64,000 nucleotides of DNA from an uncultured Candidatus Saccharibacteria bacterium (GCA_964482735.1 CAYZYV010000002.1:86061-150060); one strand, 5' to 3'. Positions 13,504 to 55,978 are shown, numbered from the stretch's first letter. Made by a program: numbers and translations. The notes: generated from the letters alone by a model not told the origin.

Positions 13504-13530
13504 ATTTATTATTATATCACATTATCTAAA

Positions 13531-15987: not shown

Positions 15988-16012
15988 ATTTTATTCTTTA
16001 TATTATTATTCT

Positions 16013-16354: not shown

Positions 16355-16357
16355 GAT

Positions 16358-16984: not shown

Positions 16985-17025
16985 GTCTATATTATATCAA
17001 ATTTTTAGAGAAAACAAAAGAAAAA

Positions 17026-17829: not shown

Positions 17830-17853
17830 TTATTATTTAGCAAAATATAGTCT

Positions 17854-18138
17854 TTCCCCTAGGTCCGACCTAGGGGAAATTATCACAGGTCAGACCTATG
17901 ATAACAGTGGAGGTCTTGCCTCATACTAGGCAAGACCTCGGGAATATTGAAATAAATGTTGTTGTTGTCAAATTTCTAATAAACGACAATCAAAGTAAAA
18001 ATTCAGAAATATAAAAACATACCCATAGTAAGCGATAGCTTAGTATGGGTATGGATGTTAAGAATTTACTATATTAACTTACTACTACTTCATTTCCCTT
18101 GCCCCCATATTTTCCCCTATCACAGGGATAGGGGAAAA
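17854..18138. promoter_or_regulatory. Divergent intergenic region with three strong palindromes sharing a TTTCCCCTA / TAGGGGAAA core
   Basis: TTTCCCCTAGG-TCCGA-CCTAGGGGAAA (17854-17879), GGTCTTGCC-TCATACTA-GGCAAGACC (17912-17937) and TTTTCCCCTATC-ACAGG-GATAGGGGAAAA (18110-18138). They lie between the divergently oriented pilin gene and pth. Confidence 0.45.
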
Positions 18139-29457: not shown

Positions 29458-29522
29458 CAATAAAATAAATGTCATCAAAAACAAAAAGGGCGACTTCACG
29501 AGCCACCCCTTTTTATTTATTA

Positions 29523-29786
29523 TCAAAGATTATAACGTCCCGTGTCTTTATGGTTAGGAAACATATAATCCCATGTCTCACTATAAGACAGTCCATTTGC
29601 TAACAGTTTCTCTCTTCCAACCTTCAAAGAACGCCAGCCCAATTGCAGTGTAGGAAACGAAACAATACAACGATCCTCTACGTTGTTTTCTTTTAGAATT
29701 CCTTTGTCACCACTATTTACAATAATACCCCACTCCTCAAAGGTATCACCGGTGTATGTCACCCCTTTTTCTATTTCAAATTCCAT
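29523..29786 (-). CDS. Hypothetical protein (87 aa)
   Basis: ORF only. Confidence 0.3.
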   Translation of the reverse strand: MEFEIEKGVTYTGDTFEEWGIIVNSGDKGILKENNVEDRCIVSFPTLQLGWRSLKVGREKLLANGLSYSETWDYMFPNHKDTGRYNL

Positions 29787-29861
29787 AACTAACCTCCTTT
29801 TTTAAAATAAGTTTTTCTTTTACATTACAATTTTAAATCTGTAAAGTCAAGCACTATAAAA

Positions 29862-30118
29862 GCGACCTTCCTAGACGTGGGTCGGTCGCTTTCACCAAAT
29901 TTATCTGCTCGCGTGGCAGGACGCGTTTCGGACATATAACTGGGCTAAAGCTGTGGGAGATTTAGAAACTACAACGAAAGAAATTAATCACTTATTGTCT
30001 CTAGTGTAAATCACGATGTCAGTTTTTGTTTATTTATTTTTAAAAATTCGTCGCCGCCGCTTTTTACGAACGTTAGTTGATCGAGGGGGTCACCCCTTTA
30101 GCCACTACCCCCATGTTA
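29862..30118. ncRNA. GC-rich structured noncoding segment (candidate ncRNA, identity unresolved)
   Basis: Two GC-rich blocks (29862-29945 and 30040-30118) in roughly 400 nt of ORF-free sequence. Hairpins include AAAGCGACC...GGTCGCTTT and GGGGTGACCCC. The minus strand contains CGTAAAAAGCGGCGGCGACGAA, reminiscent of the tmRNA PK1/resume region, but no tRNA-like ends were found. Confidence 0.3.
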
Positions 30119-30187
30119 TTTAATAAAAAAGTAGTGGTGCCTACAAAGAAGCTAAACAATTTTATTATGATAAACCTATAAAAAATT

Positions 30188-30499
30188 ATGAAAAAGCACC
30201 CCTCTATACGCCAAGTAAAATATGCCCATGGAATTATGAATGAGGGCAAGACAAAACAGCAGATTGCCTTAGAATCTGGCTTTTCTCCTAGCACAGCTCG
30301 TGTTCCTCAATTAATCGAGAATAAGCTCGGTTTTAAGCTTGCTGTGGCCCAATTAGCAGGTGAAATGGGTAATGTTGCTATGAAGCTTATGTATGAGCTC
30401 CAGGCACGAGATATGAGCAAAATGAGTGACGAGGACTTACTCTACTCACTGGATGTTATTTCTAAAACCTATGAGCGTTTTACTTCCAAATTGCTCTGA
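30188..30499 (+). CDS. Small HTH-containing protein, possibly phage terminase small-subunit-like
   Basis: The segment KTKQQIALESGFSPSTARVPQLIEN resembles the HTH of small terminase or Terminase_2 proteins. The similarity is weak. Confidence 0.3.
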   Translation: MKKHPSIRQVKYAHGIMNEGKTKQQIALESGFSPSTARVPQLIENKLGFKLAVAQLAGEMGNVAMKLMYELQARDMSKMSDEDLLYSLDVISKTYERFTSKLL

Positions 30500-30576
30500 T
30501 TTTATCTTTAGATTAAATATGATAATATGTAAATATAATTTAATATTTGAGTAGCCTAAACCAATAAGTAATTATT

Positions 30577-30690
30577 GGCATGGTGAATAAGTCCCCGTAA
30601 AAGATAAAGAACTCCTAGTCAGAGTTTGCCTTTTACGGGGCTGTATCTGGAAACGGATACAGGTGGGTTAAAATCCACCATGCTGGCTGG
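30577..30690 (+). ncRNA. Multi-stem (cloverleaf-like) structured RNA candidate upstream of the 30724 ORF
   Basis: Outer stem GGCATGGTG/CACCATGC. Inner stems CCCCGTAAAAG/CTTTTACGGGG (enclosing the small hairpin AACTC-CTAGTCA-GAGTT), CTGTATC-TGGAAAC-GATACAG and GTGGG-TTAAAAT-CCAC. Followed by GGGAGC-TTTTT-GCTTCC. Confidence 0.3.
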
Positions 30691-30723
30691 GAGCTTTTTG
30701 CTTCCTAGTCTAAAAATATTTTT

Positions 30724-30936
30724 ATGAAAACACTTTATAAATGGCAAAAAATAGCTTTATGGATAGTTGGTATACTAACCATTATTGCAATGGTTAGTAA
30801 TGTCACTTCTAAAACAATTAACGATGGAACTCTGGTTGGTTTATTACTTAGTATTATAACAGGTGTGCCATTAAATTTAGCAATTCTTTGGGGATTATTT
30901 AAAATCGGGAATAAAATTTTTAGAAAAAATGAATAG
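30724..30936 (+). CDS. Small two-TM membrane protein
   Basis: 70-aa ORF with two hydrophobic helices. Confidence 0.35.
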   Translation: MKTLYKWQKIALWIVGILTIIAMVSNVTSKTINDGTLVGLLLSIITGVPLNLAILWGLFKIGNKIFRKNE

Positions 30937-31252
30937 ATTATTTATAAAAGTTATCTTAATAATTTTAGGCTCAACAGTAATACTGTTTATTGGAAGTTTT
31001 TTTAGATATTTATTTGACTCTAAAATTTTTACATATATTTGGGATTTGGGTACAGTTATAATATTTATCTCTACACTGGCCATAATTTATGAAATAAAAG
31101 ATTTATCTGAAAACACAAAGATTGGTTTTTCTTTTGTGTTTGTTATAATATTTTTGTTTTTAGAGATAAATTTTCCGTCAATTTTAGGGGGGCTTTCCTA
31201 TCTTTGTCCAAAGTGTAGTGTTTTAGAAGGGATTAAATTTTTAATAATGTAA
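30929..31252 (+). CDS. Small multi-TM membrane protein with C-terminal CPKC
   Basis: 107-aa ORF with three hydrophobic segments. Confidence 0.35.
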   Translation: MNRLFIKVILIILGSTVILFIGSFFRYLFDSKIFTYIWDLGTVIIFISTLAIIYEIKDLSENTKIGFSFVFVIIFLFLEINFPSILGGLSYLCPKCSVLEGIKFLIM

Positions 31253-31257
31253 ATTTT

Positions 31258-31770
31258 ATGAAGAGAGAAACATATTTAATTTGGATAATTTTATTGATGA
31301 TAACTGTTGGTAATTTGTTTTTTACTTATAAACATTCTCAAAATATTGCTATAGCACCAGAGAAAAGTAATATGTTTATGGATGATATTTCTCAATGCCC
31401 AGACACGAATACCAGTGATATGTATGTTTGTCTTTATAATTTAGCAGAGACAATAAACAAAGAAGCAGATACCCTTGCTAATAAACTCATTACTCAAGCT
31501 CCTATTCGCCTAAAAGAAATAATAACAACTCAAAAAGGACCAGCTTCGTTTGTTTATGGTGGTAAAGATTTTTTAACTGATTTGCCTATACAAGTAGAAA
31601 AAGCACAAAAAGCTAAAGATGACTATATAAACAGTGTTTGTAATTTAAATTCGATGAAAATCTATGGTGGTAGTGGTGTGGATCTTGAAATAGAAGCATG
31701 TAAATACCATTTTACTAATGAATATTTACAAATACTTAAAAATTTAGAAAATGGGTTAACGGAAGAATAA
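31258..31770 (+). CDS. DUF1311 (LprI lysozyme-inhibitor-like) domain protein
   Basis: Signal/TM, then the paired-Cys pattern CPDT...YVCLYNL...ADTLANKL and CNLN...YGGSG...EACKYHF typical of DUF1311. Confidence 0.5.
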   Translation: MKRETYLIWIILLMITVGNLFFTYKHSQNIAIAPEKSNMFMDDISQCPDTNTSDMYVCLYNLAETINKEADTLANKLITQAPIRLKEIITTQKGPASFVYGGKDFLTDLPIQVEKAQKAKDDYINSVCNLNSMKIYGGSGVDLEIEACKYHFTNEYLQILKNLENGLTEE

Positions 31771-31775
31771 TTTTA

Positions 31776-32648
31776 CTAAAGACTTATATTGCCATTCTCG
31801 TCACATTTATAATTTTTGAAAAAATCTAGAACTCCTTTTTGTAAAGGATTTTTTGCCAATTCATTATAAACAAGTACAATGTCTTCACCTAAAATTTCTG
31901 AATGATTTAGTACGGTATTTTTTGTGTACATAACGGCACTTATACCCTCATGTTCTTTTTCAAGGAAAAAAGTCATAGGAACCTTACTTCCATTTTTCTT
32001 TAATATAAAAGGAATTGTGCTCCATCCATATTTTAATGGTCCACCATTTATCGGGCGAGATATAGTTTGATAACCTACAGCAAATACCGCCCTAAGTATC
32101 AACGGGATTGAAGCATCAACATGATCAAGAGCACCTCTAGATACAGCTATAACAAATTGATCAGAATCTTTTACTATTCCATCTTCTATATACTTTTCAT
32201 ACTTTTCTTTTAAAACAGATGCAATTCGTATAAGCATTTCATCACTTGGAACATTTTGAACAATACCAGTAATTGTTTCTGGAACCCTATCTTCTCCTTT
32301 CCCTTTTTCACAAGCAACACACTCAATCCAAATTTTTTTACCTTCATATTCAATTAGAATATCAGGACCTATGTCTTTAGATGAAAAAGTAATTCCTTTT
32401 TCCAATAATACACAACCAAGATACATTTCCCATGTTCTTTGATGAAACTTTTTTTTAATTTCTTTTAAGAAATTACTGTCAGCATATTGGTAATATTTTT
32501 GATAAAGAGAATCAAATTTATTTTTCCTTTCTTTTATTGATCCGCTTGTAACATAATAACTATCATAATTGGAATATTTTTTTATTAATGTCTGAAGTTC
32601 TGTTTCGGTTGTAATAAGTGGAAAATTATCTGTAAACAAATATTTCAT
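31776..32648 (-). CDS. Hypothetical 290-aa protein, third gene of the higB-higA/immA operon; weak PD-(D/E)xK-like signature
   Basis: Starts 2 nt after the upstream gene's stop. The segment GPDILIEYEGKKIWIECVACEK is the only nuclease-like motif; the rest is unrecognised. Confidence 0.35.
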   Translation of the reverse strand: MKYLFTDNFPLITTETELQTLIKKYSNYDSYYVTSGSIKERKNKFDSLYQKYYQYADSNFLKEIKKKFHQRTWEMYLGCVLLEKGITFSSKDIGPDILIEYEGKKIWIECVACEKGKGEDRVPETITGIVQNVPSDEMLIRIASVLKEKYEKYIEDGIVKDSDQFVIAVSRGALDHVDASIPLILRAVFAVGYQTISRPINGGPLKYGWSTIPFILKKNGSKVPMTFFLEKEHEGISAVMYTKNTVLNHSEILGEDIVLVYNELAKNPLQKGVLDFFKNYKCDENGNISL

Positions 32649-32650
32649 TT

Positions 32651-33712
32651 TTATGCAAATTTTAACCTAGGTCTTAAACTAGATACCATATTCCATGGAA
32701 CTTTTTTATCATGACACAACCTACCAGCAACGATGCCAGGATGAACTCCTAAACTTTTTGCAAAATTAATCACGCCATCTCTTGTTAATGGCTTCTTTAA
32801 GAAATCTATATAGTTTTCTTCTGGTATTAATTTATCACTGGCAAAATCATCGGCTTCTTTTTCCTTCTCTTGAACAATAGATAATTCTTTATTATCAAAC
32901 TCAATAAATTTCTCTTTTTTACCATGTAATATTAAATGTCCTAATTCATGATATAAATTAAACCAAAAAATATCTGCCCATGAGTTATAAATACTCAGCT
33001 GTATTACAGGATTATTATTAATCCACCTAACAGCCCCACTTACTCCACTACCTGAAAAATGAGGAATATATACTAAAGCTACTCCGGCTTGATTTAAAAT
33101 TTTAATTACTTCTTTTGAAAAATCTTCCGGTTTTTTTACTGATAGTAATTTAATTTGTGATAAAGATTCTTTTAGCTTTATTTCGGAATATTCCGGAAGA
33201 ACATTTTTTTTAGATTCCAACTCACCACACCTAAGCCATGTTGCAATAACTTCACTTTTAATATTTAGATTATTTTTTTTACGATAAGCAACAGTTTCTG
33301 TTGTCTGAACATATGACAAAGAATTAACCCCAAAAAATCTCCAGAGATTTTCAACTTTTTTATAGTTATTTGTGGTTTTTTCAACAAATCCTCGTTTTGC
33401 AAGTTCTGCATAAGGGAATTTAGAAATCATTTCTGTTTCTTTTTTAATTATTGAAATTCTTTCAATTCTAGCTCTAGTTTCTTGATATTTTTTTTCAAGA
33501 TTAACCCAAAAGGAAGCTGATCCACCTAAAGCATTTTCTAAAAGTAGTGCAGTCTCAACAGTTATGGAAGCTTCTCCATTTATTATTTGACTTATATGTT
33601 TCTCTGTGAGACCTGTTCTCTCGCTGAGACTTTTTTGAGTCATTCCTTCACGATCTAGGGCTTTTGAAATGGTATACCCGGGGTGTATTGCTTTGTTTGG
33701 ATTATAAACCAT
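32651..33712 (-). CDS. HigA-type XRE-family HTH antitoxin fused to ImmA/IrrE-family HEXXH metallopeptidase domain
   Basis: N-terminal IHPGYTISKALDREGMTQKSLSERTGLTEKHISQIINGEASITVETALLLENALGGSASFWVNLE is a HigA-like HTH. C-terminal YHELGHLILHG is the HEXXH of COG2856-type peptidases. Confidence 0.7.
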   Translation of the reverse strand: MVYNPNKAIHPGYTISKALDREGMTQKSLSERTGLTEKHISQIINGEASITVETALLLENALGGSASFWVNLEKKYQETRARIERISIIKKETEMISKFPYAELAKRGFVEKTTNNYKKVENLWRFFGVNSLSYVQTTETVAYRKKNNLNIKSEVIATWLRCGELESKKNVLPEYSEIKLKESLSQIKLLSVKKPEDFSKEVIKILNQAGVALVYIPHFSGSGVSGAVRWINNNPVIQLSIYNSWADIFWFNLYHELGHLILHGKKEKFIEFDNKELSIVQEKEKEADDFASDKLIPEENYIDFLKKPLTRDGVINFAKSLGVHPGIVAGRLCHDKKVPWNMVSSLRPRLKFA

Positions 33713-33722
33713 AAATTTATAT

Positions 33723-34085
33723 TTAATGATAATTGATAAATATTTCTATTATTAAAATAAATGTTATACTTTTATAATTATCTATTCTAAAATTTGGGTC
33801 TCCATCATGATTCGGTTTAAATATAATTCTATATTTATTATCAACATCAACAGCAAAACATCCTTTATATTCTCCCTTTAATGGGTGGGGGCGATAACTA
33901 TGTGGAACATCAGATAATGCATCAGCTGAAATAAGTATGTTTAATGTGTTCAGAATATCCGTAGCATAATCAATTCCTTTTTTGTTATATCTTTTACATA
34001 AGGCATTGTAATCATTAACAAGGGCCTCGTGTTTTGGATTATCAAATACTATTCTCATATTAACAAATATTACTAAAAACTGCAA
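33723..34085 (-). CDS. higB: HigB-like (RelE/ParE superfamily, plasmid-maintenance killer) toxin
   Basis: C-terminal HPLKGEYKGCFAVDVDNKYRIIF...YH matches the HigB killer-protein pattern. Directly upstream of the HigA-like gene. Confidence 0.6.
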   Translation of the reverse strand: MQFLVIFVNMRIVFDNPKHEALVNDYNALCKRYNKKGIDYATDILNTLNILISADALSDVPHSYRPHPLKGEYKGCFAVDVDNKYRIIFKPNHDGDPNFRIDNYKSITFILIIEIFINYH

Positions 34086-34196
34086 CTTTTTTATTTACCA
34101 TTTTGGTAAATAAAAAAACTAATAAATCGTTTATTTTCTGATGTTTATTATGGTATTTAATTATATATAATAAGTTATCCACAAGTATTATTTAAA

Positions 34197-35885
34197 TTAT
34201 TTCTTAAGCCTTCCTTTTGAGCCAATTTTATTATCGTCCACAATATCTCGGAGTTGATTGATTAGAACCATAATTTCTTCAATTTTTTTTACAATGCGTT
34301 TTTGTTCAGCAAGAGGTGGGAGTGGTATATTAGCAGATTTAACTTTCTCTGCATTAAGATTTTTTACAACTGCACCAGAAACTATATCTGCGAATTGTTG
34401 AAAAAATACGTTTGAGGATAACATATAATAAAAAAAATCTCTAAAGGTTTCTTTGTAATAGGGTTTTAAAACCAGCCAGCCGTCGTGAATACATCCATCA
34501 ATCTTTAATATATATGGTCTCCCAAAACTCATTGAGTTAGTAAGAAGTAAATCTCCAACATGTACCATTCTTGTCTTTTTTAAACCAGCTTTAATAATTT
34601 TTTCTTTAGTAGAATATATATATTTTCCTCCTTGTTCTGTGTCTCCAATCTTTATCCAATTCAATCCGTCATCATTATTCGTTATATAACTTTCAATTGG
34701 ACGTGGTGAGCCACCTCTTTCAACTGAAAATACATCACCGAGCTTAACCCATTTCCATGATTTTGGAATTTCAAAAAGTAAATCTTTATTATCCATAAAA
34801 ATTGACTCCTTATTTTTCTTTTTTTTATTATCATTTATTTCTATTCTTTTCTTTTCAATATTAATAAAAGATAATAGATCTTCCGCAGTTCCTTCTTTTT
34901 TATCCTGCGGAACTAATTTACCAGAAACAGCAAGGCTTAAAATTGCATCTTCTAACTCTTTAATATCTTCAGGCGTTTTTACCAATTCGGCTAATTGTTT
35001 TAGCGCAATTTTTGTTTCTCCTTTTCCGAGAGATTGCATGGCGCTACGAGTAAGACGGGAGCGAATTTCATCACGTTCATTTTTCCTAATTTCAAGCTTG
35101 TCTAATTGTTTTATTACTTCTTCAATTTTTTTTACAATGCGATTTTGTTCTTTGTATGGAGGCAAAGGAATAACAAAAGATTTTATATCGTCCATCGATA
35201 TATTATCATTTGTAGAATTTTTCTTTTTATTAATAAAATCTTGTATATAAGAAGAAAGGATTACATAATTAATATATTCCGAAATAATATTATCGTTAAT
35301 CTTTATAGTTGCAACTCTTTGATTTGTTACCATTTTTTCATCTATATTTCTTACAAAATAACTCTTACCAACTGTACCACCAGTCATACATAAAAGTATA
35401 TTTTCATTATTTATTTCGAATTGAGCTAAACTCGAATAATAATCATGACGTACTATTTTATTATTTTTAAATCCATTTTCGTCAAAATCAGATATCTTAA
35501 TTACTCTAACTCCAGTATTTTTAAAATTTTGGCTTTTAAAGGCATATCCACCATTAATGTCAGATAAATTATTTAATCTTGTCCATTTCCAAGATATAGG
35601 AATTTCAAATGGGATTTCTTCTTCATTTATATTTAAAAGTTTTTTTTCTGTATCATTCTTTAAACATTCTGATTTAATTTTATTAAATAATTCTTCACCA
35701 GTTCCTTCTTTTTTATCCTGTGGAACTAATTTACCAGACATAGCCAAAGTAAGTATCGCTTTACGAAGGCGATTTATTCCATCTGGTACTTCTATGAAAT
35801 CATCAATATTATTAGCAATAGTTTTTATATCATTTAGTATCATGGTGAGAAAGCGCTTCGGTGATAACTGTGCGAATTTGCTCAA
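34197..35885 (-). CDS. hsdS: Type I restriction-modification specificity subunit HsdS (two target-recognition domains)
   Basis: Duplicated conserved regions AILTLAMSGKLVPQDKKEGT / AILSLAVSGKLVPQDKKEGT and IPLPPYKEQNRIVKKIEE / IPLPPLAEQKRIVKKIEE flank two variable domains. The annotated start overlaps hsdM; the real start is probably an internal Met. Confidence 0.8.
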   Translation of the reverse strand: MSKFAQLSPKRFLTMILNDIKTIANNIDDFIEVPDGINRLRKAILTLAMSGKLVPQDKKEGTGEELFNKIKSECLKNDTEKKLLNINEEEIPFEIPISWKWTRLNNLSDINGGYAFKSQNFKNTGVRVIKISDFDENGFKNNKIVRHDYYSSLAQFEINNENILLCMTGGTVGKSYFVRNIDEKMVTNQRVATIKINDNIISEYINYVILSSYIQDFINKKKNSTNDNISMDDIKSFVIPLPPYKEQNRIVKKIEEVIKQLDKLEIRKNERDEIRSRLTRSAMQSLGKGETKIALKQLAELVKTPEDIKELEDAILSLAVSGKLVPQDKKEGTAEDLLSFINIEKKRIEINDNKKKKNKESIFMDNKDLLFEIPKSWKWVKLGDVFSVERGGSPRPIESYITNNDDGLNWIKIGDTEQGGKYIYSTKEKIIKAGLKKTRMVHVGDLLLTNSMSFGRPYILKIDGCIHDGWLVLKPYYKETFRDFFYYMLSSNVFFQQFADIVSGAVVKNLNAEKVKSANIPLPPLAEQKRIVKKIEEIMVLINQLRDIVDDNKIGSKGRLKK

Positions 35886-37275
35886 GCACTTTTTTCACCT
35901 CTTGCTGTTTATTATGGTATGTTTCAAGTAATTCCTCTGGTGATTCAAGAACATCAACAGGAGTTCGAGGGTTCTTTATATCCAAGTTATAATTACGCTT
36001 GATAATTTCGTCTATAGAAACTTTCCACGCTTGATCATTTTCTTCACGATTATTCCACCATTTTGTCTCTTTTTCAAACTCATCAAATTTAATAGGGTTA
36101 GTCATCGAATATGCCTTTTGCCCTTCGGGGAGTGGATGCTCATAATACCAAATCTCCTTGGTTGGTTCACCTTTTGTAAAGAAAAGTAAGTTTGTTGCAA
36201 TAGTTGTATATGGGGCAAAAACACTCTTTGGTAAACGAACAATGGTGTGAAGATTACATTCTTCTAATAACTGTTTTTTGAGGGTTGTTTTCATACCTTC
36301 ACCAAACAAGGTTCCGTCGGGAAGAACCATACCTGCACGGCCATGTTTTTTAAGTAAACGCATAATAAGAACAAGAAAAAGATCTGCTGTTTCTCTTGTT
36401 TGAAATTCTTTTGGAAAATTAGATTCAATACCTGGCTCTTCAGTACCACCGAATGGAGGATTTGTAATAATACAATCTACCTTATCTGAATCTGTGTAAT
36501 CACGTATAGGTTTTTCTAGGGTGTTTCCACGGCGCATTGTCACAGGTTCTTCGATCCCGTGAAGCATCATATTGGTTATTAGAAGCATAAATGGAAGCGG
36601 TTTCTTTTCAACGCCATAGATACTCTGTTGAATTTTTTGTTCATCTTTAACTGATTTAACTTGTTTACGCATATGCTCAAGAGCATGTACCAAGAATCCT
36701 CCAGTGCCTACAGCTGGATCCATAACAGATTCACCAACTTTTGGATCTACCATTTCTACGACAAATTGAGTTACAGCACGAGGAGTATACATTTCTCCGA
36801 AATTACCAGCACTTTGTAAACTTTTTAAAAGACGTTCATATATGTCGTTAAAAGCATGACGATCTTTTGATGCATTGAAATCTATTTCATTTATTTTATT
36901 TATAACCTGTTTAAGTAAAGTACCTTTGCGCATAAAGTTATAAACATCCTTAAATGCCATACGTGTAAGGTCGGTTCTTTTGTTTCCTGATTCAGGAAGA
37001 TCTCTTAACCCAGGAAGTAAATCATTATTTACAAAATCAATGAGCTTATCTCCGGTCATCCCATCGAGAGGACCTGCCCATGTACGCCACTGATATTTTT
37101 TAGGAAGTGTAGGGATAAATTTATCTTTACGTATTTCAAGAGCTTTATCTTCATCATCTAAAATTTTTAGATAGATAAGCCAAACCATCTGAGACAAACG
37201 TGTAGCATCACCATCTACACCAACATCTTGGCGCATTATGTCTTGAATTGCTTTTATTGTTGATGGACTAAACAT
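35830..37275 (-). CDS. hsdM: Type I R-M DNA methyltransferase subunit HsdM (N6-adenine)
   Basis: Motif I DPAVGTGGFL and motif IV NPPFG. Confidence 0.9.
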   Translation of the reverse strand: MFSPSTIKAIQDIMRQDVGVDGDATRLSQMVWLIYLKILDDEDKALEIRKDKFIPTLPKKYQWRTWAGPLDGMTGDKLIDFVNNDLLPGLRDLPESGNKRTDLTRMAFKDVYNFMRKGTLLKQVINKINEIDFNASKDRHAFNDIYERLLKSLQSAGNFGEMYTPRAVTQFVVEMVDPKVGESVMDPAVGTGGFLVHALEHMRKQVKSVKDEQKIQQSIYGVEKKPLPFMLLITNMMLHGIEEPVTMRRGNTLEKPIRDYTDSDKVDCIITNPPFGGTEEPGIESNFPKEFQTRETADLFLVLIMRLLKKHGRAGMVLPDGTLFGEGMKTTLKKQLLEECNLHTIVRLPKSVFAPYTTIATNLLFFTKGEPTKEIWYYEHPLPEGQKAYSMTNPIKFDEFEKETKWWNNREENDQAWKVSIDEIIKRNYNLDIKNPRTPVDVLESPEELLETYHNKQQEVKKVLEQIRTVITEALSHHDTK

Positions 37276-37276
37276 A

Positions 37277-39646
37277 TTATTTGGTATACATTACATCTAA
37301 TAATTCATCGACTGTTTTAAAATATCCTTCCTTGCCACCAAATAATGAAACAAGTTCATAGTCGGTTCCAATAGAACGAAATGGTTCCAGTGTGAGAATT
37401 CTAACATTCTCAATATCTTTCAGGGTTACATCTGCATATTTTTGGAGTAAAGCCTCAAGAACTTCTCTTGCTTTTCCACTATATTTATCTAAATAATTTG
37501 AACGACGAACAGCTTCTATCCTTTCGTTCTTTTTCATCATTTTCTTATCATAACCAACGTGCATTATCAGATCAAAAAGATCAAACTCTGCACCAACTTG
37601 TTTTTGAAGTTCTTCAAGTGGAATTCCACTTGCGTCTATCTGATCAATGATTGCTTGGCGACGATCTGCTGATTGCCATGCTGTAAAGAAACTTTCAAGT
37701 GTTGGGTAATGCGTAAGAATATTCTTACGTGTAAAATCAGTTAATGACTGTGTTAGAAGTTTTCCATCAGGTCCAAGATATTGAACTTGTTCTTTTACTA
37801 CAGCATAAGGCACTCCACTTAAAGTAAATACTGGAGGTCTATCAATAACATCTAGAGATGACCCTTTTGAAAGAATAACGTCAACGAGTTTATCTTCATC
37901 CTCTTTTTCTTCAATAGTTAGTTCTGGTGGATCTTTTTCTGTTAATTCCTCTTCAATATTATCGTTTTCTCTTACTTCAAAAACACGTTCAGCAACTCCA
38001 TCAAAACCAGGATCGGCAAATAATTTTGTAACACCCTGAAAATCAATAATAGTAAACCACATTTTACCCTTATCTTCTCTTACACGAGTTCCACGACCTA
38101 TTATTTGTTTAAATTCAGTCATACTTTCTATTGGTTTATCAAGAACTATCAGTTTGCATGTTTGGGCATCAACACCGGTAGATAAAAGTTGTGATGTTGT
38201 AACTAATGTTGGATATTTTTCTTCAGGATCAATAAAACGATCCAGCTGGTTCTTTCCTTCTTCATCATCTCCCGTAATACGCATAACATAACGTGTATCT
38301 TCTAGTGATTTATCTCCTGAGGCATTTACTAATGCAGAACGCATACGTTCTGCATGTGCAGTTGTTCGGCAAAAGACAATGGTCTTAGCATAAGGATCAT
38401 TTATTGCATTAATATATTCAACTATTTTTTCAGCAACAATTTTGTCTCGCTGAGGAAAAATAACTGATTTGTTTATATCACGAAGTTCATAAATACGCTC
38501 TTCAACAAGGTTCCCATTGTCATCTATTGTACCAGGAGCAGGACGCCATCCGGTTATATCATTATCCAAGAGAACCCTTAATACTTTATATGGTGCTAAA
38601 AACCCATCATCTATACCTTGTTTTAATGAGTATGTATAAATAGACTCACCAAAATAATGAGTGGTGCTCGTGTCAGTTGTTTCTTTTGGTGTAGCTGTAA
38701 GTCCAAGGTGTGTAGCACTTGTAAAGTGATCAAGTATTTCATGCCATTCGCTATCTTCTGAGGCACTACCTCTATGACACTCATCTACTATTATCAAATC
38801 AAAGAAATCTTTTGGAAGTTTTTTGAATAATTTATCATTCTCTTCCTTTCCACTCATTGCTTGATATAAACCTAAAAATACCTCATATGCCATGAGTGAT
38901 CCTATATCATTAAAATCTTGACGAGAAATTTTTGTTAGAGCATTTCCAAAGTGTTTAAGATCGTTTACACGTGCTTGATCAACTAAAATATTTCTATCAG
39001 CAAGAAAGAGTATTCTTTTGGCGTTCCCAGATTTCCAAAGACGCCACATGATTTGTCCAGCAGTATAAGTTTTTCCTGTACCAGTTGCCATAACTAAGAG
39101 TAATCGCTTTTCACCTCGTGCAATGGCTTCAACAGAACGATCAATAGCTATTCTCTGAAAATATCGTGGTGATTTATTTGGATCATCTGAATAAAAAGGT
39201 GTTTCAATTGCAGTACGTAGTGTTGCAGATTCTCCTTTCCATTTTAAATAACGTTGGTAAAGTTCTTCTGGAGAAGGAAAATTATCTAAATTAAGAGAAG
39301 ATTCAGTCACTTCAGATATTCCGGTTCTATCATGAAAAAGATAACCATTTCCATTTGAAGAGAAAACAAAAGGCACATCAAGATTTTCTGCATAAACTAA
39401 AGCTTGTTGCATTCCTATACCAAGATCCTTATTTGAATGTTTTGCTTCTATAATTGCCAATGGTAAGTTAGGTCTATATTCAAGGAGAAAATCTACTTTC
39501 TTTTTTTCTCCACGCTTTGTAGTTTTTCCACTAACATGAATACGTCCCATTGTGTATGGATACTCCTCACGAATTTGTTGGTCTGTCCATCCAGAATTTA
39601 TTATTGATGGCCTTATTAATCTATTGCGTGTTTCTTCTTCGTTCAT
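37277..39646 (-). CDS. hsdR: Type I R-M restriction subunit HsdR (helicase-nuclease)
   Basis: N-terminal HsdR_N nuclease region, Walker A ATGTGKT, DECHRG (DEAD-box type) and helicase C motifs. 789 aa. Confidence 0.9.
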   Translation of the reverse strand: MNEEETRNRLIRPSIINSGWTDQQIREEYPYTMGRIHVSGKTTKRGEKKKVDFLLEYRPNLPLAIIEAKHSNKDLGIGMQQALVYAENLDVPFVFSSNGNGYLFHDRTGISEVTESSLNLDNFPSPEELYQRYLKWKGESATLRTAIETPFYSDDPNKSPRYFQRIAIDRSVEAIARGEKRLLLVMATGTGKTYTAGQIMWRLWKSGNAKRILFLADRNILVDQARVNDLKHFGNALTKISRQDFNDIGSLMAYEVFLGLYQAMSGKEENDKLFKKLPKDFFDLIIVDECHRGSASEDSEWHEILDHFTSATHLGLTATPKETTDTSTTHYFGESIYTYSLKQGIDDGFLAPYKVLRVLLDNDITGWRPAPGTIDDNGNLVEERIYELRDINKSVIFPQRDKIVAEKIVEYINAINDPYAKTIVFCRTTAHAERMRSALVNASGDKSLEDTRYVMRITGDDEEGKNQLDRFIDPEEKYPTLVTTSQLLSTGVDAQTCKLIVLDKPIESMTEFKQIIGRGTRVREDKGKMWFTIIDFQGVTKLFADPGFDGVAERVFEVRENDNIEEELTEKDPPELTIEEKEDEDKLVDVILSKGSSLDVIDRPPVFTLSGVPYAVVKEQVQYLGPDGKLLTQSLTDFTRKNILTHYPTLESFFTAWQSADRRQAIIDQIDASGIPLEELQKQVGAEFDLFDLIMHVGYDKKMMKKNERIEAVRRSNYLDKYSGKAREVLEALLQKYADVTLKDIENVRILTLEPFRSIGTDYELVSLFGGKEGYFKTVDELLDVMYTK

Positions 39647-39650
39647 AAAA

Positions 39651-40496
39651 TTATTTTCTTACATTTTCATCTAATGTTTTACCTTTATCATCTTTCCAAG
39701 CAGTCCAGCCATTGCAAGACCTACCAGCTATACAATCAGCAGCAGCACTTGGACTTTTGAAAACATAATCATTTTCAAAAATAAATGACTCCTCATTGAA
39801 TTTTTTTAGTATACCTTCGTTTTCCAGCTTCTTTCTTAATAAAGATCCACTATGATCTATAAAAGCAGGAGTTTCTTTAATTCTAGATAAAGATCCTTTA
39901 TATACAATAAATTCTCCGCTTTCTAATAATGAGCCTTTCCCATTCCCTGCTTTATTTGTAGCATCTGAAAATTCATATATTTTTTTATCTGAAATAGATT
40001 CAGTAATAACACTAAATAATTGATATCCTAATGTTTCTAGAATAAATTGAACTTTTTCAAAAAAATCTTCTACTGAAATTTTATCAATGTCTGATAGTGA
40101 ATTCTCTGGTGGTTGCACCTTATTTTGTATTACCATTCGATTTACTTTGTGCGCCAAAACAGTAGCTTTATGTTCTAAATATTTAACATGAGCTTTATTT
40201 AAAACACCGGTAAAAATTGCGGCTGTATCCCAGAAATCTTTATTTGAATCGTGATTAGTAATTCTATTATAGAAATTTTCAGATTCTCCTATGTAGGCAA
40301 GATCATCACCTGATTCTTCATCAAAACCGAACAAAACATAAAGACCTGGCTTATCTATATCAGGAAAATCTTTTAATTCTTTTAAATTTTGACGTGGCAA
40401 CAAAAAACATTTGCCAGACCATCCAGGAACTTCTATTATTTTCATTCCATTAGGGTTTCCTCCTGGAACAAGAATTTGTATGGCTTTTGATTTCAT
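39651..40496 (-). CDS. GIY-YIG nuclease family protein (DUF4357-like C-terminus), R-M associated
   Basis: GLYVLF...AYIGESENFYNRITNH is a GIY-YIG core. The gene is immediately downstream of hsdR. Confidence 0.55.
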   Translation of the reverse strand: MKSKAIQILVPGGNPNGMKIIEVPGWSGKCFLLPRQNLKELKDFPDIDKPGLYVLFGFDEESGDDLAYIGESENFYNRITNHDSNKDFWDTAAIFTGVLNKAHVKYLEHKATVLAHKVNRMVIQNKVQPPENSLSDIDKISVEDFFEKVQFILETLGYQLFSVITESISDKKIYEFSDATNKAGNGKGSLLESGEFIVYKGSLSRIKETPAFIDHSGSLLRKKLENEGILKKFNEESFIFENDYVFKSPSAAADCIAGRSCNGWTAWKDDKGKTLDENVRK

Positions 40497-40623
40497 AAAG
40501 TTATAGTCTCATAATACTACTTTTTGCCTTATTCTCAAAGAGTGATTTAAGGAATTTGATTTTTTAAATAAATATGATACGATTATATTAGAAGCACTTT
40601 TAAATTAAATGTCAACGAACTAA

Positions 40624-40675
40624 AAATGGTGGTATTCCACCAACAAACCAAAAAATGGTGGTATTCCACCAACTG
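40624..40675. repeat. Two tandem 23-bp iterons AAAAATGGTGGTATTCCACCAAC, each with an internal inverted repeat; putative replication origin
   Basis: Direct read. Located 230 nt upstream of the Prim-Pol/AAA gene in a 400-nt AT-rich intergenic region that also contains TTATCAATTATCAATAAG. Confidence 0.55.
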
Positions 40676-40900
40676 AACTAGATAAGCTCGACAGCTTCCA
40701 TTATCAATTATCAATAAGTCATGCGCATTTATGCTGTCAGTTTAGTTGTATATAAAAAATTTAATATCAAAAAATTGTAAACATAAGTAGCACCTGGCAG
40801 AGGTGTTTTTTTGTTTTTATTAAGTATGTCGATTCTTATCTAATGAACCAACACCTCACATTAATTAGTTTTTTATGTAGGTCTTGGATAATAACAATAC

Positions 40901-42712
40901 ATGTTCGTTTCCAGGACCTACATAAGGAACAACGAACATGTTATGAATGAAAACATAAAAAATAAAAAAGAGTCTGCTATTTATTATCAACAAATGGGTT
41001 TAAGTATCATTCCAACTGGTAGAAATAAAAAACCACTAATTGATTCGTGGAAACAATATGAAAGTATACGCCCAACAATCGAAGAAATTACTACATGGTG
41101 GGATAAATGGCCAGAAGCAAATCCTGCACTTGTTACAGGTAAGGTATCAGGAGTTGTCGCTCTTGATTTAGATAAAAAACATAATAGAACATCAAAAGAA
41201 TTTCAAATACCTCCGACAGCCTCAGCAATATCTGGAAATGGAGGTGAGCATTTCTTTTTCAAATATCCATTAAATGGTCCAGTTAAGACGTCATCTGCTA
41301 TAAGCGGATATGGCGTTGACTCTCGAGGGGATGGAGGATACATACTTCTCTCACCATCTGAAAATGAAAATGGAGGCAAATATACATGGATTGTTCCTTT
41401 TGAGTCAAAAGAAGATTTGGCTGATATGCCTGATTGGTTATTAAGTCTTACTACTGAAAAGGAAAATACTAAGAAGTGGTTAGATGGAATGAATGGTGTA
41501 TCAGAAGGTTCTAGAAATGACACAGCGACCTCAATGGCAGGAAAGATAATTAGTTCGACTAGTCCTGAATTATTAGAAAGTATTGGATGGGACCAATTCA
41601 AGATTTGGAATGATAGAAACATTCCACCTCTTCCAGAAAAGGAATTACGAAATGTTTGGGAAAGCATAAAAAGAAAACATGTAAATAAAGAAAAAACTAA
41701 TTTTGATGAACATCAATTTGTTTCTCTTGGAGATTTACTAAATGAACCTGAGGAAACAATAAGTTGGGTAATAGAAGATATGTTGCCTGCTGGTGGTTTT
41801 TCTATTATGGTAGCAAAACCAAAAGTTGGAAAATCAACGCTCGTAAGACAATTAGCACTGTGCGTTGCTCGCGGAGAATCCTTCCTAGAAAGAAAAACAG
41901 AAAAAGGTGGTGTTTTATATGTGGCATTGGAAGAAAAACGAGGAGAAGTTAAAAACCATTTTAAACTTCTTGGAGCTGACGGCACAGAAGATTTAGGCGT
42001 ATATGTTGGATCTGCTCCTGGAGAAGCATATACATGGCTTGAAAATGAAGTAAAAAAGAAACACCCAATATTGATAATTATTGATACTCTTTTCCGATTC
42101 GCTCGCGTTGCAGATGTTAGTGATTATGCAAAAGTTACAAATGCTCTAGATCCACTCTTAAAATTAGCTAGAGAAAATTCCACCCATTTAATGTGTCTTC
42201 ATCATGCAAGAAAAATGCCTGGGGATGGAGCTGATGCTACTCTTGGGTCTACTGCCATTTTTGGAACTGTAGATACCGCCATGTTACTTAAGAGAAATAA
42301 AGACGGTAAAAGAACCCTCGAAACTCAACAAAGATATGGAAGAGATATGGAAGAGACTGTATTGATGTTTAACGTTGATTTAAAAACAATAACTCTGGGT
42401 AGTTTAAAAGAAGAAGAGGATGAAAAGAAAATCGAGGAGTTAATTATAGATTTATTGAAATCATCAAAAGAACCAATTGATGAAAAAACCATTCGAGATG
42501 AAATTGAAGGAAAAACTACACTAAAAAGTATTGCACTTAGATCATTATTTCAAGGTGGAAAAATAACAAGAACCGGTTTAGGTAGAAAAGGAGATCCTTA
42601 TCTTTATTCTTGTTCCCTTGTTCCCGATATATGTGAGGAACAAGAAAACAAGAAAGAGATTGGTCCTAAAGATATCCAATTAAAAGATAACTTGGAGAAT
42701 TTTACCCTTTAG
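40901..42712 (+). CDS. Bifunctional DNA primase-polymerase (Prim-Pol) N-domain fused to AAA_25/RepA-like ATPase
   Basis: N-terminal YYQQMGLSIIPTGRNKKPLIDSWKQY...ALDLD is a Prim-Pol domain. Central Walker A KPKVGKST and the DTLFRFAR Walker B region indicate a RecA-like ATPase. Confidence 0.7.
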   Translation: MFVSRTYIRNNEHVMNENIKNKKESAIYYQQMGLSIIPTGRNKKPLIDSWKQYESIRPTIEEITTWWDKWPEANPALVTGKVSGVVALDLDKKHNRTSKEFQIPPTASAISGNGGEHFFFKYPLNGPVKTSSAISGYGVDSRGDGGYILLSPSENENGGKYTWIVPFESKEDLADMPDWLLSLTTEKENTKKWLDGMNGVSEGSRNDTATSMAGKIISSTSPELLESIGWDQFKIWNDRNIPPLPEKELRNVWESIKRKHVNKEKTNFDEHQFVSLGDLLNEPEETISWVIEDMLPAGGFSIMVAKPKVGKSTLVRQLALCVARGESFLERKTEKGGVLYVALEEKRGEVKNHFKLLGADGTEDLGVYVGSAPGEAYTWLENEVKKKHPILIIIDTLFRFARVADVSDYAKVTNALDPLLKLARENSTHLMCLHHARKMPGDGADATLGSTAIFGTVDTAMLLKRNKDGKRTLETQQRYGRDMEETVLMFNVDLKTITLGSLKEEEDEKKIEELIIDLLKSSKEPIDEKTIRDEIEGKTTLKSIALRSLFQGGKITRTGLGRKGDPYLYSCSLVPDICEEQENKKEIGPKDIQLKDNLENFTL

Positions 42713-42716
42713 GATC

Positions 42717-42899
42717 ATGGTCAAAAAAGAAACTATAATTGAATTTATGGGGGCCTTAAAAGAAGAATACAACAGAGATGTGGACTTCAAAGAGGCATCA
42801 ATAATACTAAACGATTTAGTTTCTTATTTTGACTTGTTAGCTAAAATAGACCATGTGCAAGATGAGGTAAAAAATGATATAATGTATGAGCCAGACTGA
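42717..42899 (+). CDS. Small 60-aa hypothetical protein
   Basis: ORF only. Confidence 0.3.
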   Translation: MVKKETIIEFMGALKEEYNRDVDFKEASIILNDLVSYFDLLAKIDHVQDEVKNDIMYEPD

Positions 42900-43007
42900 A
42901 GTTAAAAATATATTTGTTTATAAAAGCGGAGTAATAACTGCTTCAGTCTGGCGATTGAGGATTAAGTTGTTACTCCACTTTTGTTTATAAATCTAACCTA
43001 AAAACAT

Positions 43008-44570
43008 ATGAAAAATAAAATAAATAAAGCTGTCATAATTTGTCGTGTTTCAAGTAAAGAGCAAGAAGATACTGGCTACTCTTTGGATGCACAAGAAAAG
43101 TTGCTTCAGACATATGCTGACGAAAGAAATATAAATGTAATAAGAGTATATAAAATTTCAGAATCAGCCAGTGGAAAAATGGTAAGAAAAAAGTTCTACG
43201 AAATTTTACAGTATATTAAAAAGAATAATGCTAATTTAATATTAGCAGAAAAGATTGATCGTCTAACTAGAAATCTAAAAGATGCTTCAATAATAAATGA
43301 TTGGGTCCAGGAAAATAAAAACAATGAAGTTCATTTTGTTAAAGAAAACTTTATTGTCAGTCAGAATACAAAAGCTCATGAAAATCTTGTCTGGGATATG
43401 AAAGTTGCTATTGCTAGATTTTACACAAACAATCTCTCGGAAGAAGTAAAAAAGGGTCAGAAAGAAAAAATTTCTCAAGGGTGGTTACCAACAAAACCTC
43501 CTCTTGGTTATGAGACAGTTGGAGAAAAAGGACATAAGGTTCACATTATAGACAAAGAACGAGCTCCTTATATTAAGAAAATGTTTGAACTTTATTCTTC
43601 CGGAAATTATTCAACTCATATGATGGTTGAGTTAATGTATAAAGAAGGATTAAGAAACCGATCAGGTAAAAAGGTTGGGAAATCTAGAATGTATGACCTA
43701 CTTTCAGATCCATTTTACTGTGGAAAAATTAAGTGGAAAGAACAAATCTTTAATGGAAAACAAGAACCTATTATAACAAAAGACTTATATGATTTGGTCC
43801 AGGAGAAATTAAATCGTAAATTTAAGAGCCCTCAATATCAAAAACATAACCCTGTTTTTAAGGCAAAAATGGAGTGTGATGAATGTAAAGGAACTGTTAC
43901 TTGGGAGACTCACAAGGGTCATTGGTATGGACATTGTAACCATTATAAAACTTGTAGCCAGAAAGTTTGGAAAAGACAGGAGGATGTTGAAAAGATACTT
44001 TTCCCTTTATTTGATAACGTAGCCCCAAAAACAAATAAGGTATTAAAAGTATTAGAAAAAGCATTAAAGGAGAATCACGAAGATGAGATAAAATATAACA
44101 ACAATGTTCTAAGTGGTATAAATAAAAAAATAGAAACAGCGCAAAGAAGAATTGAGGCTATCTATGAAGATAAAATTGATGGGAAAATTTCACCAGAATT
44201 TTACAATAGAAAATTGGCAGAATATACAAAAGAAAAAGAAGACGCCATGGAATCTCTTAAAAAATTAAACGAAGGAAACACTAAATATTACGAGGCTGGG
44301 TTCGCAATACACGAGCTTGCTTCAAGAGCTTCTGAGATTTATAAGAGCCCTAAAGCCACAGTAGAAGATAAAAGATTACTTTTAAGTAAAATATTTTCGA
44401 ACCTTTCATTAAATGCTGATGAAATAAAGCCAAATTACACATTAGCCTTCGAATTTCTCAGAGAATGGATACCTATACTAAATAATAATTTCGAACCAGA
44501 AAAAGATGTTGCTAATAAAGGAAAAGAGAGCACTTTCGTGCTCCCTCGTCCTACTTTGCTCCGTGGGTAG
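43008..44570 (+). CDS. Large serine recombinase (resolvase/invertase N-domain, recombinase domain, Zn ribbon)
   Basis: N-terminal AVIICRVSSKEQ catalytic-Ser region. Recombinase domain, then CDECKG...HCNHYKTC zinc ribbon and a coiled coil. The last 12 nt overlap tRNA-Asn. Confidence 0.85.
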   Translation: MKNKINKAVIICRVSSKEQEDTGYSLDAQEKLLQTYADERNINVIRVYKISESASGKMVRKKFYEILQYIKKNNANLILAEKIDRLTRNLKDASIINDWVQENKNNEVHFVKENFIVSQNTKAHENLVWDMKVAIARFYTNNLSEEVKKGQKEKISQGWLPTKPPLGYETVGEKGHKVHIIDKERAPYIKKMFELYSSGNYSTHMMVELMYKEGLRNRSGKKVGKSRMYDLLSDPFYCGKIKWKEQIFNGKQEPIITKDLYDLVQEKLNRKFKSPQYQKHNPVFKAKMECDECKGTVTWETHKGHWYGHCNHYKTCSQKVWKRQEDVEKILFPLFDNVAPKTNKVLKVLEKALKENHEDEIKYNNNVLSGINKKIETAQRRIEAIYEDKIDGKISPEFYNRKLAEYTKEKEDAMESLKKLNEGNTKYYEAGFAIHELASRASEIYKSPKATVEDKRLLLSKIFSNLSLNADEIKPNYTLAFEFLREWIPILNNNFEPEKDVANKGKESTFVLPRPTLLRG

Positions 44571-44630
44571 GGATCGAACCTACGACCAATCGCTTAACAG
44601 GCGACCGCTCTACCGCTGAGCTACCACGGA
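44559..44630 (-). tRNA. tRNA-Asn (anticodon GTT)
   Basis: Acceptor TCCGTGG/CCACGGA, anticodon stem GTCGC/GCGAT with loop CTGTTAA, T-arm GTAGG-TTCGATC-CCTAC. Confidence 0.85.
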
Positions 44631-44708
44631 ATGATTGTTTAATTTTCAAAAACTTACCATTTATTACTAAATGGTCTAGATATAATAACAAAAAATCTTA
44701 AAAAATGC

Positions 44709-53600: not shown

Positions 53601-53970
53601 TTTATATGGTTTTGTGTTTATAAGCCGAATTCTGTTCTCCGACTTTTAGTCGGAGCGGTAAACATTTATCTAGACCTAAAGTTACCCTCAGGCTCAAGCG
53701 ATTCAGACTCCGACCAAGGTCGGAGAATACGATCTTGCACACTCGTAAGGATTTAGCCGTTTCATTTTCTATGTTTCCATAGAACTCACCCCTCACTTAC
53801 GTTTAGGGTGCTACACTCTTTCGAGTTAATAGCGTCTCTGCTCGCACCTCTATGATTACTCACGATGGGTGTTACCCACTACAACTGCCTGACGTAGTCA
53901 GACTGTGTGTTCGGACTTTCCTCACTCCGACATAAATCGAAGCGCGTTTACCTAACACAAAACCATAAAC
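53600..53970 (-). ncRNA. rnpB: RNase P RNA (bacterial type A-like)
   Basis: On the minus strand: P1 pairing TATGGTTTTGTGTT (5') with AACACAAAACCATA (3'). P4 5' strand GAGGAAAGTCCGAAC. The 3' P4 strand ACAGAATTCGGCTTA matches the universal ACAGAAnnCGGCUUA. Length about 370 nt. Confidence 0.75.

Positions 53971-54436: not shown

Positions 54437-55978
<1,542 letters not shown>

Follow-up and report, generated by a model that had tools for sequence, protein, structure and literature searches.

A tRNA-Asn-targeting serine integrase of Patescibacteria with its attachment site inside its own gene, so that integration exchanges the C-terminus of the enzyme

The 64,000-nt stretch of DNA analyzed here (CAYZYV010000002.1:86061-150060 of GCA_964482735.1, hereafter the window) contains a segment of 14,651 bp, positions 29911-44561, that was delimited to the nucleotide by comparison of attachment (att) sites. 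This segment is very probably an integrative element with its own replication gene, which its own large serine recombinase (LSR) would have inserted at the 3' end of a tRNA-Asn gene, the attP site of the element lying inside the LSR reading frame. It is an LSR, not a tyrosine integrase, that places the element at the extreme 3' end of tRNA-Asn, and the state of integration sets which of two open reading frames (ORFs) the gene has: one of 550 aa across the episomal joint and one of 520 aa in the integrated copy. The arrangement is a bacterial serine-recombinase counterpart of the archaeal "suicidal" integrases, although a milder one, in that only the last 32 residues are lost. The host belongs to the Patescibacteria (candidate phyla radiation, CPR; Nomurabacteria/Paceibacteria), the best matches to the DnaE protein of the window, in Nomurabacteria/Paceibacteria metagenome-assembled genomes, reaching no more than 80-81% identity. 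An earlier note on this DNA had proposed an integrated, excisable element with a replication gene, defence cargo and an integrase at tRNA-Asn, and this was borne out. Its limits of 29460-44630 were not: the left end is at 29906-29911 and the right end is at 44561, within the last tRNA nucleotides. Nor is the DNA markedly AT-rich as had been thought, since GC is ~33% throughout the window, with 32.1% in the island versus 33.5% and 34.9% in the flanks.

Variants of the locus were sought in relatives after no repeat of the tRNA 3' end turned up in the window, where a second copy of the 23-nt 3' end is absent at up to three mismatches and no long direct repeats were found as att repeats. These searches were empty because the two ends share only 5 nt. 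In the closest reference genome (L007) the site is uninterrupted, and this attB is the empty tRNA-Asn site by which the earlier note had proposed to define the ends of the element. L007 8388-8440 matches window 29858-29910 (96% identity), L007 8436-8531 matches window 44557-44653 (tRNA-Asn), and the two matches overlap by TGCTC. The attP joint of the excised form is present on a 1,918-nt JGI metagenome contig (L106) that matches window 42764-44566 (99.4%) and is fused at GCTC to window 29906-30029 (92.8%). Since 5 nt of identity are too few for a k-mer assembler to join unlinked sequences, the joint represents a real molecule. Identity among attB, attP, attL and attR is confined to TGCTC/GCTC, the portion common to all elements being GCTC. 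The core TGCTC is at 29906-29910 in attL, where it is the switch point of L106, and is repeated at 44557-44561 in attR, at tRNA-Asn positions ~71-74. Insertion and excision are site specific and take place within the GCTC core. The host-side arm of attL (B arm, 29858-29905), identified by the L007 match, is a terminator-like hairpin that directly abuts tRNA-Asn at the empty site. On the other side, the B' arm is the tRNA-Asn(gtt) gene itself (minus strand; 44558-44630 by ARAGORN, 44559-44630 with 70 bits by Rfam), which stays intact on integration without formation of a long repeat. An ORF of 87 aa at 29523-29786 falls outside the element.

The left boundary was also seen in a sister strain (L087 and L089-L091; 95.6% identical), the contigs of which were recovered by exact-protein look-ups of the flanking LysE gene. 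These contigs follow the left flank of the window, including the 87-aa ORF, to 29851 and then carry ~890 extra nt. L089 and L090 rejoin the window sequence at 29906-29998 after the extra DNA, L087 runs into entirely different genes after an identical TGCTC, and L087 and L090 part right after the core. This comparison indicates that the variable DNA begins at 29906-29911. In another species, represented by contig L098, the element lies beside tRNA-Asn at 96% identity; the flanks on that contig have 72-73% identity to the window and 79-82% to L007, and the host-specific sequence begins directly after GCTC. An 11-kb relative (L099) has an LSR that is 80% identical, other cargo and an equal attL/attR layout. 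One element occupies different host species, and another element takes the same site in the sister strain.

The integrated, truncated form of the integrase gene (43008-44570, plus strand) encodes the 520-aa protein and has the Pfam Resolvase and Recombinase domains expected of the large serine recombinase that had been placed here. The catalytic domain (PF00239, 8.7e-22) has a catalytic serine column that is invariant in 65 homologues, and the phmmer match was the TP901-1 catalytic domain. The C-terminal domain (PF07508, 5.9e-14) has invariant cysteine columns and long helices at residues 339-418 in the AF2 model. The top Foldseek matches were full-length serine integrase complexes (E 1e-19), and a PDB sequence search matched only the catalytic domain. 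In domains, fold and the character of its att sites the protein is an LSR, with recombination activity as the predicted function. The TAG stop codon (44568-44570) lies inside tRNA-Asn, giving the overlap of 12 nt (Rfam) or 13 nt (ARAGORN) that was noted earlier, and this overlap exists because attP lies inside the LSR frame, which crosses the crossover. The integrated ORF ends in ..PRPTLL followed by RG and the stop, the last two codons and the stop being tRNA antisense. Joining 44561 to 29911 instead makes the frame longer by 32 codons and gives a 550-aa ORF that ends in LL followed by AWQDAFRTYNW...LLSLV. In the integrated state these tail codons are 14.6 kb away at attL (29911-30009, plus strand), where this detached end of the gene (AWQDAFRTYNWAKAVGDLETTTKEINHLLSLV, 32 codons followed by the stop) doubles as the P' arm of attP; only excision brings it into frame with the LSR. 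One of two supposed structured noncoding segments (29787-30187) thus holds attL and the displaced LSR codons. The 550-aa protein encoded on L106 (P0123) has a tail identical to that predicted from the window, and two residues differ elsewhere. The P arm of attP consists of LSR codons ~505-518, and the linker that they encode is predicted by AlphaFold/AF2 to be disordered.

Note that a perfect 6-bp palindrome (GAGCAC-TTTC-GTGCTC, window 44530-44545) lies inside the LSR ORF, ending 12 nt and starting 27 nt short of the crossover. The peptide that it specifies, ..STFV.., recurs throughout the family, so that coding and probable att-site constraint fall together. A CGTCCT/AGGACG dyad considered as a general attP feature was dropped because it is not kept in L099.

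The family was tallied on the 120 closest LSR homologues (58-100% identical). About 59 of them end 1-2 residues after LL (LLRG, LLPG, LLRR and others), 28 read through the tRNA T-arm antisense (..LLRRQDSNLRP..) and about 23 bear one of three conserved tails. The lengths fall into two groups, 515-520 and 545-550 aa. At all six integrated loci (window, L098, L099, L016, L021 and L036) the LSR stops inside tRNA-Asn just past GCTC. No tRNA follows the gene in any of the four contigs that carry a full-length LSR (L101, L104, L105 and L106): Rfam found no tRNA in the first three, and L106 runs on into the left end of the element itself. A second LSR clade (L016 type), only 27% identical to the window LSR, likewise includes truncated proteins, read-through proteins and proteins with a tail, and its tails fall into the same three classes. 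The proteins P0123 and P0289 are 27% identical overall, yet 27 of their 32 tail residues are identical. The split layout is thus deeply conserved, being kept in two LSR clades that are only 27% identical, and tails have evidently been exchanged between the clades, as is expected if heterologous elements sharing the GCTC core recombine at the same tRNA. The wider family comprises 1,319 clusters at E<=1e-30 in a search of 1.84 billion representatives, the alignments of which rarely reach the tail and thus gave no tail census. Among 150 diverse 50%-cluster representatives, many end in tRNA-antisense peptides. A metagenome scan with the LSR single-protein pattern, which is very specific, returned only three loci, although these were informative. 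A separate IMG/VR scan with the LSR gave no relative.

The substitution pattern shows that the tail is under purifying selection. Relative to the window, tail codon changes (synonymous/non-synonymous) number 7/0 in L106, 4/0 in L090 and 10/6 in L099. Tail classes keep D-x-F-R-T-x-N-W through different codons (TTT/TTC, CGG/AGA, ACA/ACT), conservation reaches the last residue (..LLSLV), ~95 nt past the crossover, and the frame is intact in all three integrated copies examined (window, L099 and L087). These same data bear on the best surviving alternative, that the 32-residue extension is a by-product: attP would simply overlap the end of the gene, conservation would reflect a DNA-level constraint on P' and the two protein forms would be equivalent. 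The first ~25 nt past the crossover must indeed act as an integrase-binding P' arm, and the P arm likewise imposes a conserved peptide (..STFV.SHP.LL) within the disordered linker. However, overwhelmingly synonymous change in L106 and L090, preservation of the motif between tail classes with different codons, conservation far beyond a serine-integrase half-site and the intact frames of the integrated copies all speak against it, and we consider it unlikely.

In the reading that we prefer, integration at GCTC separates the last 32 codons from the LSR gene, leaving them at attL and the gene in its 520-aa form, and excision restores the 550-aa frame across the attP joint. The element's protein with primase-polymerase (Prim-Pol) and AAA_25 domains may then replicate the circle from the repeat-bearing region at 40500-40900, and the 60-aa ORF preceding the LSR could act as a directionality factor or regulator. 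The tail could be a portable C-terminal module that reports the state of the element, such as a stability tag or a peptide controlling partners or directionality, in which case episomal and integrated copies would make functionally different integrases. A functional isoform switch of this sort, in which a tail made only episomally sets stability, partner binding or recombination direction and the element in effect "knows" its own state, is put forward tentatively. Portability of the tail between very different enzymes led us to prefer a tag-like role (stability, partner binding or direction control) to a structural one; between a tag-like and a dispensable tail the call is close to even.

Several points weigh against the preferred reading. 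The truncated enzyme retains all recognized LSR domains, and hence the tail may be dispensable for catalysis, as the by-product explanation would have it. Tails swap between enzymes that are 27% identical, which speaks against a tail built into the enzyme fold. In this DNA a frame that stays open for 32 codons is no rarity (P ~0.14), and the case for the tail therefore rests on homology and the substitution pattern. AF2 gives the tail two helices at modest confidence (pLDDT 60-70), a prediction that says nothing on tail contacts. The attP joint could in principle stem from a tandem array rather than from a free circle. Finally, replication by the Prim-Pol protein and the roles proposed for the 60-aa ORF and the repeats are read from domain content and position only.

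The backbone of the element begins at its right with the replication protein (40901-42712, plus strand), which has Prim-Pol, PriCT_1 and AAA_25 helicase-type ATPase domains (Pfam 4e-29 and 3e-31) and matches PHROG DNA polymerase/primase families. Pfam thereby confirmed the Prim-Pol/AAA gene of the earlier note. The iterons that were to precede it exist in part: the divergent intergenic region upstream of the gene holds two exact 23-nt repeats (40622-40644 and 40651-40673), each with a GGTGG/CCACC palindrome, but just these two. The pair is a candidate origin or operator. Given the replication gene and the recovered attP joint, circularity and autonomous replication are candidate traits of the element. 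The 60-aa ORF (42717-42899, plus strand), directly upstream of the LSR and without a family match, is a putative recombination directionality factor or other regulator. It is 41-68% identical across five elements (window, L099, L101, L104 and L105) and always precedes the LSR of this clade, whereas the ORF upstream of the L016-clade LSR shows no relation to it.

At the left end of the element a 103-aa ORF (30188-30499, plus strand) may encode a helix-turn-helix (HTH) regulator. It had been called terminase-small-like, but there was no PHROG match and only a KorA match at E 0.08. It is followed by a LOOT RNA (RF03000; 30553-30679, plus strand) that scored 86.1 bits in Rfam against a gathering score of 46.4 and spans model positions 1-121; this RNA is the one of the two proposed structured noncoding segments that held up as such. 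Downstream are three small ORFs of 70, 107 and 170 aa (30724-31770, plus strand) that look membrane-bound or secreted by eye and have no family match. The DUF1311 protein claimed for the island found no Pfam match even at E<=10. The LOOT RNA lies 45 nt upstream of these small membrane-protein-like ORFs and has an equal relative position in L099 (5483-5601, minus strand), L087 (14710-14846, minus strand) and L101 (3711-3829).

Across the four elements, the LOOT RNA is 6-61 nt upstream of, and co-oriented with, small membrane- or secreted-looking ORFs. This placement suggests that within the backbone the RNA serves as a leader or has a regulatory role. The L087 element (11908-18060, JGI 3300010352), a different element at the same attB in the 95.6%-identical strain, opens with a class-2 tail (PLVDEFRTLNW...). 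Besides its own LOOT RNA it has unassigned minus-strand ORFs, one with a TSP_1 domain, and at 12477-12652 a second copy of the tRNA-trailing element described below.

An integrase, a primase-helicase fusion and small regulators are also the core of phage-inducible chromosomal islands, and the element could accordingly be a prophage remnant or a phage satellite that needs a helper phage for packaging, not a plasmid-like integrative element. Primase/polymerase families of PHROG match the replication gene, a prophage with a terminase (L107) contains a relative of the 290-aa candidate defence gene of the island (see below), and the phages of Patescibacteria are poorly covered by profile libraries, a further point against the plasmid-like interpretation. 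However, no phage structural or conjugation genes were detectable in the element, no island ORF has a capsid, portal, terminase or tail match in Pfam or PHROG, the full-length-LSR contig L101 is also without structural PHROG matches, and the LSR has no IMG/VR match. Moreover, L104, a relative with a full-length LSR, bears a TraG-like ATPase instead. We therefore consider a satellite lifestyle improbable, and no structural gene backs the phage-plasmid reading offered earlier. Least probable is a fixed, immobile island with an integrase crippled by C-terminal loss, as in "suicidal" integration without return: the integrated gene does lack its tail, and in the archaeal case a split gene no longer works, excision depending on an unbroken copy supplied in trans (PMC8371274). 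Against this, a metagenome from the same series of samples contains the attP joint of a 99.4%-identical copy, the tail codons remain unbroken at attL and purifying selection acts on them, the element is 96% identical in a host that is only 73% identical, and alternative occupants and an empty site exist.

To our knowledge, attP is intergenic in the textbook serine integrase systems. The enzyme and its sites otherwise resemble the large serine integrases (PhiC31, Bxb1, A118/LI, TP901-1 and SPbeta SprA): resolvase, recombinase, zinc ribbon and coiled coil are present, the att sites are short with identity limited to a few crossover bases and hybrid attL and attR, and a small accessory gene next to int, here the 60-aa ORF, would by analogy be the candidate directionality factor. 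The integrase described here differs in that attP lies within the integrase ORF, so that integration swaps the C-terminus, and in its tRNA gene target. According to PMC7192596, in which 14 of 297 candidates were of this kind, targeting of a t(m)RNA gene by a serine integrase "has not been reported previously"; it was presented there as rare and unproven.

The closest parallel is with the archaeal suicidal integrases of the SSV1/pTN3/pT26-2 type. These too have attP inside the integrase ORF, so that integration partitions the gene, and their carriers are integrative plasmids or viruses. Integrase moieties on either side of the crossover recombine to give chimeric integrases (PMC8371274), which parallels the tail shuffling between LSR clades seen here. 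In contrast, the archaeal integrases belong to the tyrosine recombinases, have identical att sites of 40-50 bp and, as PMC8371274 states, are found exclusively in archaea; their split removes the N-terminal part and inactivates the gene, such that excision requires the complete copy in trans. Here a bacterial (Patescibacteria) serine recombinase uses a 4-5-nt core and loses its last 32 residues, with all catalytic and DNA-binding domains remaining in one ORF. Descriptions of attP within the reading frame of an integrase have so far been limited to archaeal tyrosine integrases; here the arrangement occurs in a bacterial serine recombinase. In the literature searched, the coverage of which is incomplete, neither a split serine integrase nor integrative elements of Patescibacteria turned up.

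A second parallel is integration-dependent immunity of mycobacteriophages. Broussard et al. are said to have described in 2013 that attP of BPs, Brujita and Charlie lies in the 3' end of the repressor gene and that integration removes an ssrA-like degradation tag. There, as here, attP is in the 3' end of a gene and a C-terminally truncated product results from integration. In those phages, however, the repressor is split and the recombinase is a tyrosine recombinase, whereas here the integrase itself is split and there is no evident ssrA-like ending beyond hydrophobic termini, ..LLSLV in one tail class. The element also shares with the tRNA-linked tyrosine-integrase islands an integrase at the end nearest the tRNA, a cargo of defence and toxin-antitoxin genes and variable occupancy among strains. 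The earlier note had called the arrangement "classic", but the classic one combines a tyrosine integrase with a long tRNA 3' repeat. Here no island ORF has a Phage_integrase domain, there is no direct repeat of the 3' part of the tRNA and an LSR crosses over at the last tRNA nucleotides through a 4-5-nt core.

All of the cargo genes are on the minus strand. The complete type I restriction-modification (R-M) system that had been reported was confirmed by Pfam, with hsdS at 34197-35885 (two stretches of Methylase_S, for two target-recognition domains), hsdM at 35830-37275 (N6_Mtase and HsdM_N) and hsdR at 37277-39646 (ResIII, HSDR_N and EcoEI_R_C). The adjacent gene (39651-40496) was thought to encode a GIY-YIG nuclease. 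That match is weak and below the Pfam cut-off (E 0.002), and the solid assignments are DUF4357 (Pfam 6e-22) and PDC-S14 (PADLOC 1.4e-82, residues 1-278 of 281), the latter being only a candidate single-gene defence family of PADLOC.

A HigB/HigA-ImmA module with a third gene had also been proposed, and its three parts are present as a HigB/YafQ-like toxin ORF (33723-34085; weak Pfam, phrog_3066 toxin-antitoxin toxin at 1.7e-10, no PADLOC match), an ORF combining an Xre-type HTH (HTH_3) with Peptidase_M78 (32651-33712; Pfam, PADLOC PD-Lambda-2_B at 4.6e-39) and an unannotated gene for a 290-aa candidate defence protein (31776-32648). This last protein has no Pfam domain and matches PADLOC PD-T7-1 (3e-17) and PD-T7-5 (1e-14) and phrog_8571 (3e-22). 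Its family is mostly from Patescibacteria and without Pfam domains, and homologues occur in L107 without the HigB/Xre-M78 pair. The PD-lambda-2 system of Vassallo et al. (2022) consists of a HigB-like protein, an Xre-peptidase fusion and a P4-antitoxin-like protein (PMC9519451). The genes here resemble it in the order of a HigB-like ORF and an HTH/peptidase fusion with a third, co-oriented gene in the operon. They differ in that the third gene is PD-T7-1/PD-T7-5-like, not P4-antitoxin-like, so that component C is replaced and the three-component system as defined is not present, and in that component A is recognized weakly, by Pfam and PHROG only. Since the 290-aa gene is also found away from the HigB/Xre-M78 pair, the trio is at most a PD-lambda-2 variant and possibly two separate units.

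The R-M, PDC-S14, HigB/Xre-M78 and 290-aa genes presumably serve as anti-phage or addiction cargo. A short variant of the element (L100, 96% identical) carries neither the R-M and toxin genes nor the other PD-lambda-2-like genes and has lost most of the PDC-S14 gene: its positions 1-760 are joined to window 40351 onward, and the homologue of the 70-aa ORF almost abuts the region upstream of the replication gene. The missing genes are therefore exchangeable cargo. The cargo had been held the likeliest place of novelty, but it matches known or candidate families (type I R-M, PDC-S14, PD-lambda-2-like) and holds nothing categorically new; the unusual part is the integration module.

In L007, the genome with the empty attB, a large R-M-like gene pair (3232-8351; 858 and 844 aa) lies immediately beside the conserved 53-nt attB arm. 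The pair is ~27% identical to hsdR/hsdM of the window and has no recombinase in view; hence the tRNA-Asn neighborhood gathers defence genes by more than one route.

Other observations concern tRNA genes of the window and its relatives. Just downstream of tRNA-Val (3036-3109) and on the same (minus) strand, window 2856-3012 is a structured tRNA-trailing element of a type also seen in L017 (20634-20774, tRNA-Lys), L014 (3871-4005) and L065 (1-102) (both tRNA-Asn) and L087 (11712-11868). These elements of ~135-175 nt consist of a terminator-like hairpin, the reverse complement of the last ~16 nt of the tRNA, a 9-bp hairpin, a conserved three-way core and an exact ~16-nt copy of the tRNA end, and their ends vary with the tRNA (Val, Lys, Asn). 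In 31 of the 46 modelled pairs both partners have changed, and pairing holds in 95.8% of cells versus 35-47% in slid controls. There was no Rfam match. In L087 the LSR element is inserted between the tRNA and the tRNA-trailing element. Weak matches of the model lie upstream of tRNA-Asn in L014 (4149-4281) and L016 (3537-3662). These start with a copy of the tRNA-Asn 5' end (TCCGTGGTAGC..), continue with a similar core and then an anticodon-arm-like hairpin, and may be pseudo-tRNA relatives of the tRNA-trailing element.

In some strains a group I intron (RF00028, 56-60 bits) occupies the anticodon loop of tRNA-Asn (L097 1480-1736 and L036 4694-4983), and ARAGORN therefore misses the gene. The L097 intron is inserted between window positions 44596 and 44597, and in L036 the LSR element is integrated at the 3' end of the intron-bearing tRNA-Asn. 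Logan contig breaks inside the tRNA, considered as empty-site evidence, were set aside, as they are probably better explained by this intron polymorphism (L097). Elsewhere in the window the RNase P RNA (53605-53963) lies beside the 16S rRNA gene (54437-55978), with no 23S detected in the window. The same neighborhood occurs in relatives such as L017 and looks like ordinary synteny of the group.

Serine integrases are major genome-engineering tools, and control of their direction is an active question. If true, an integrase product that changes with integration state would provide a testable control principle together with fresh att/integrase pairs. Archaeal suicidal integration and integration-dependent immunity would then have a bacterial analogue that works through a serine recombinase, and the switch would be used by a very large tRNA-targeting integrase family in Patescibacteria. 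The layout shows that archaeal tyrosine recombinases are not alone in having attP within the integrase gene, contrary to the review PMC8371274, and that serine integrases can target tRNA genes systematically, formerly a low-number bioinformatic hint (PMC7192596). The element further gives the orphan LOOT RNA its first genomic context and is a concrete vehicle by which defence systems move from one species to another in the Patescibacteria, a poorly understood group.

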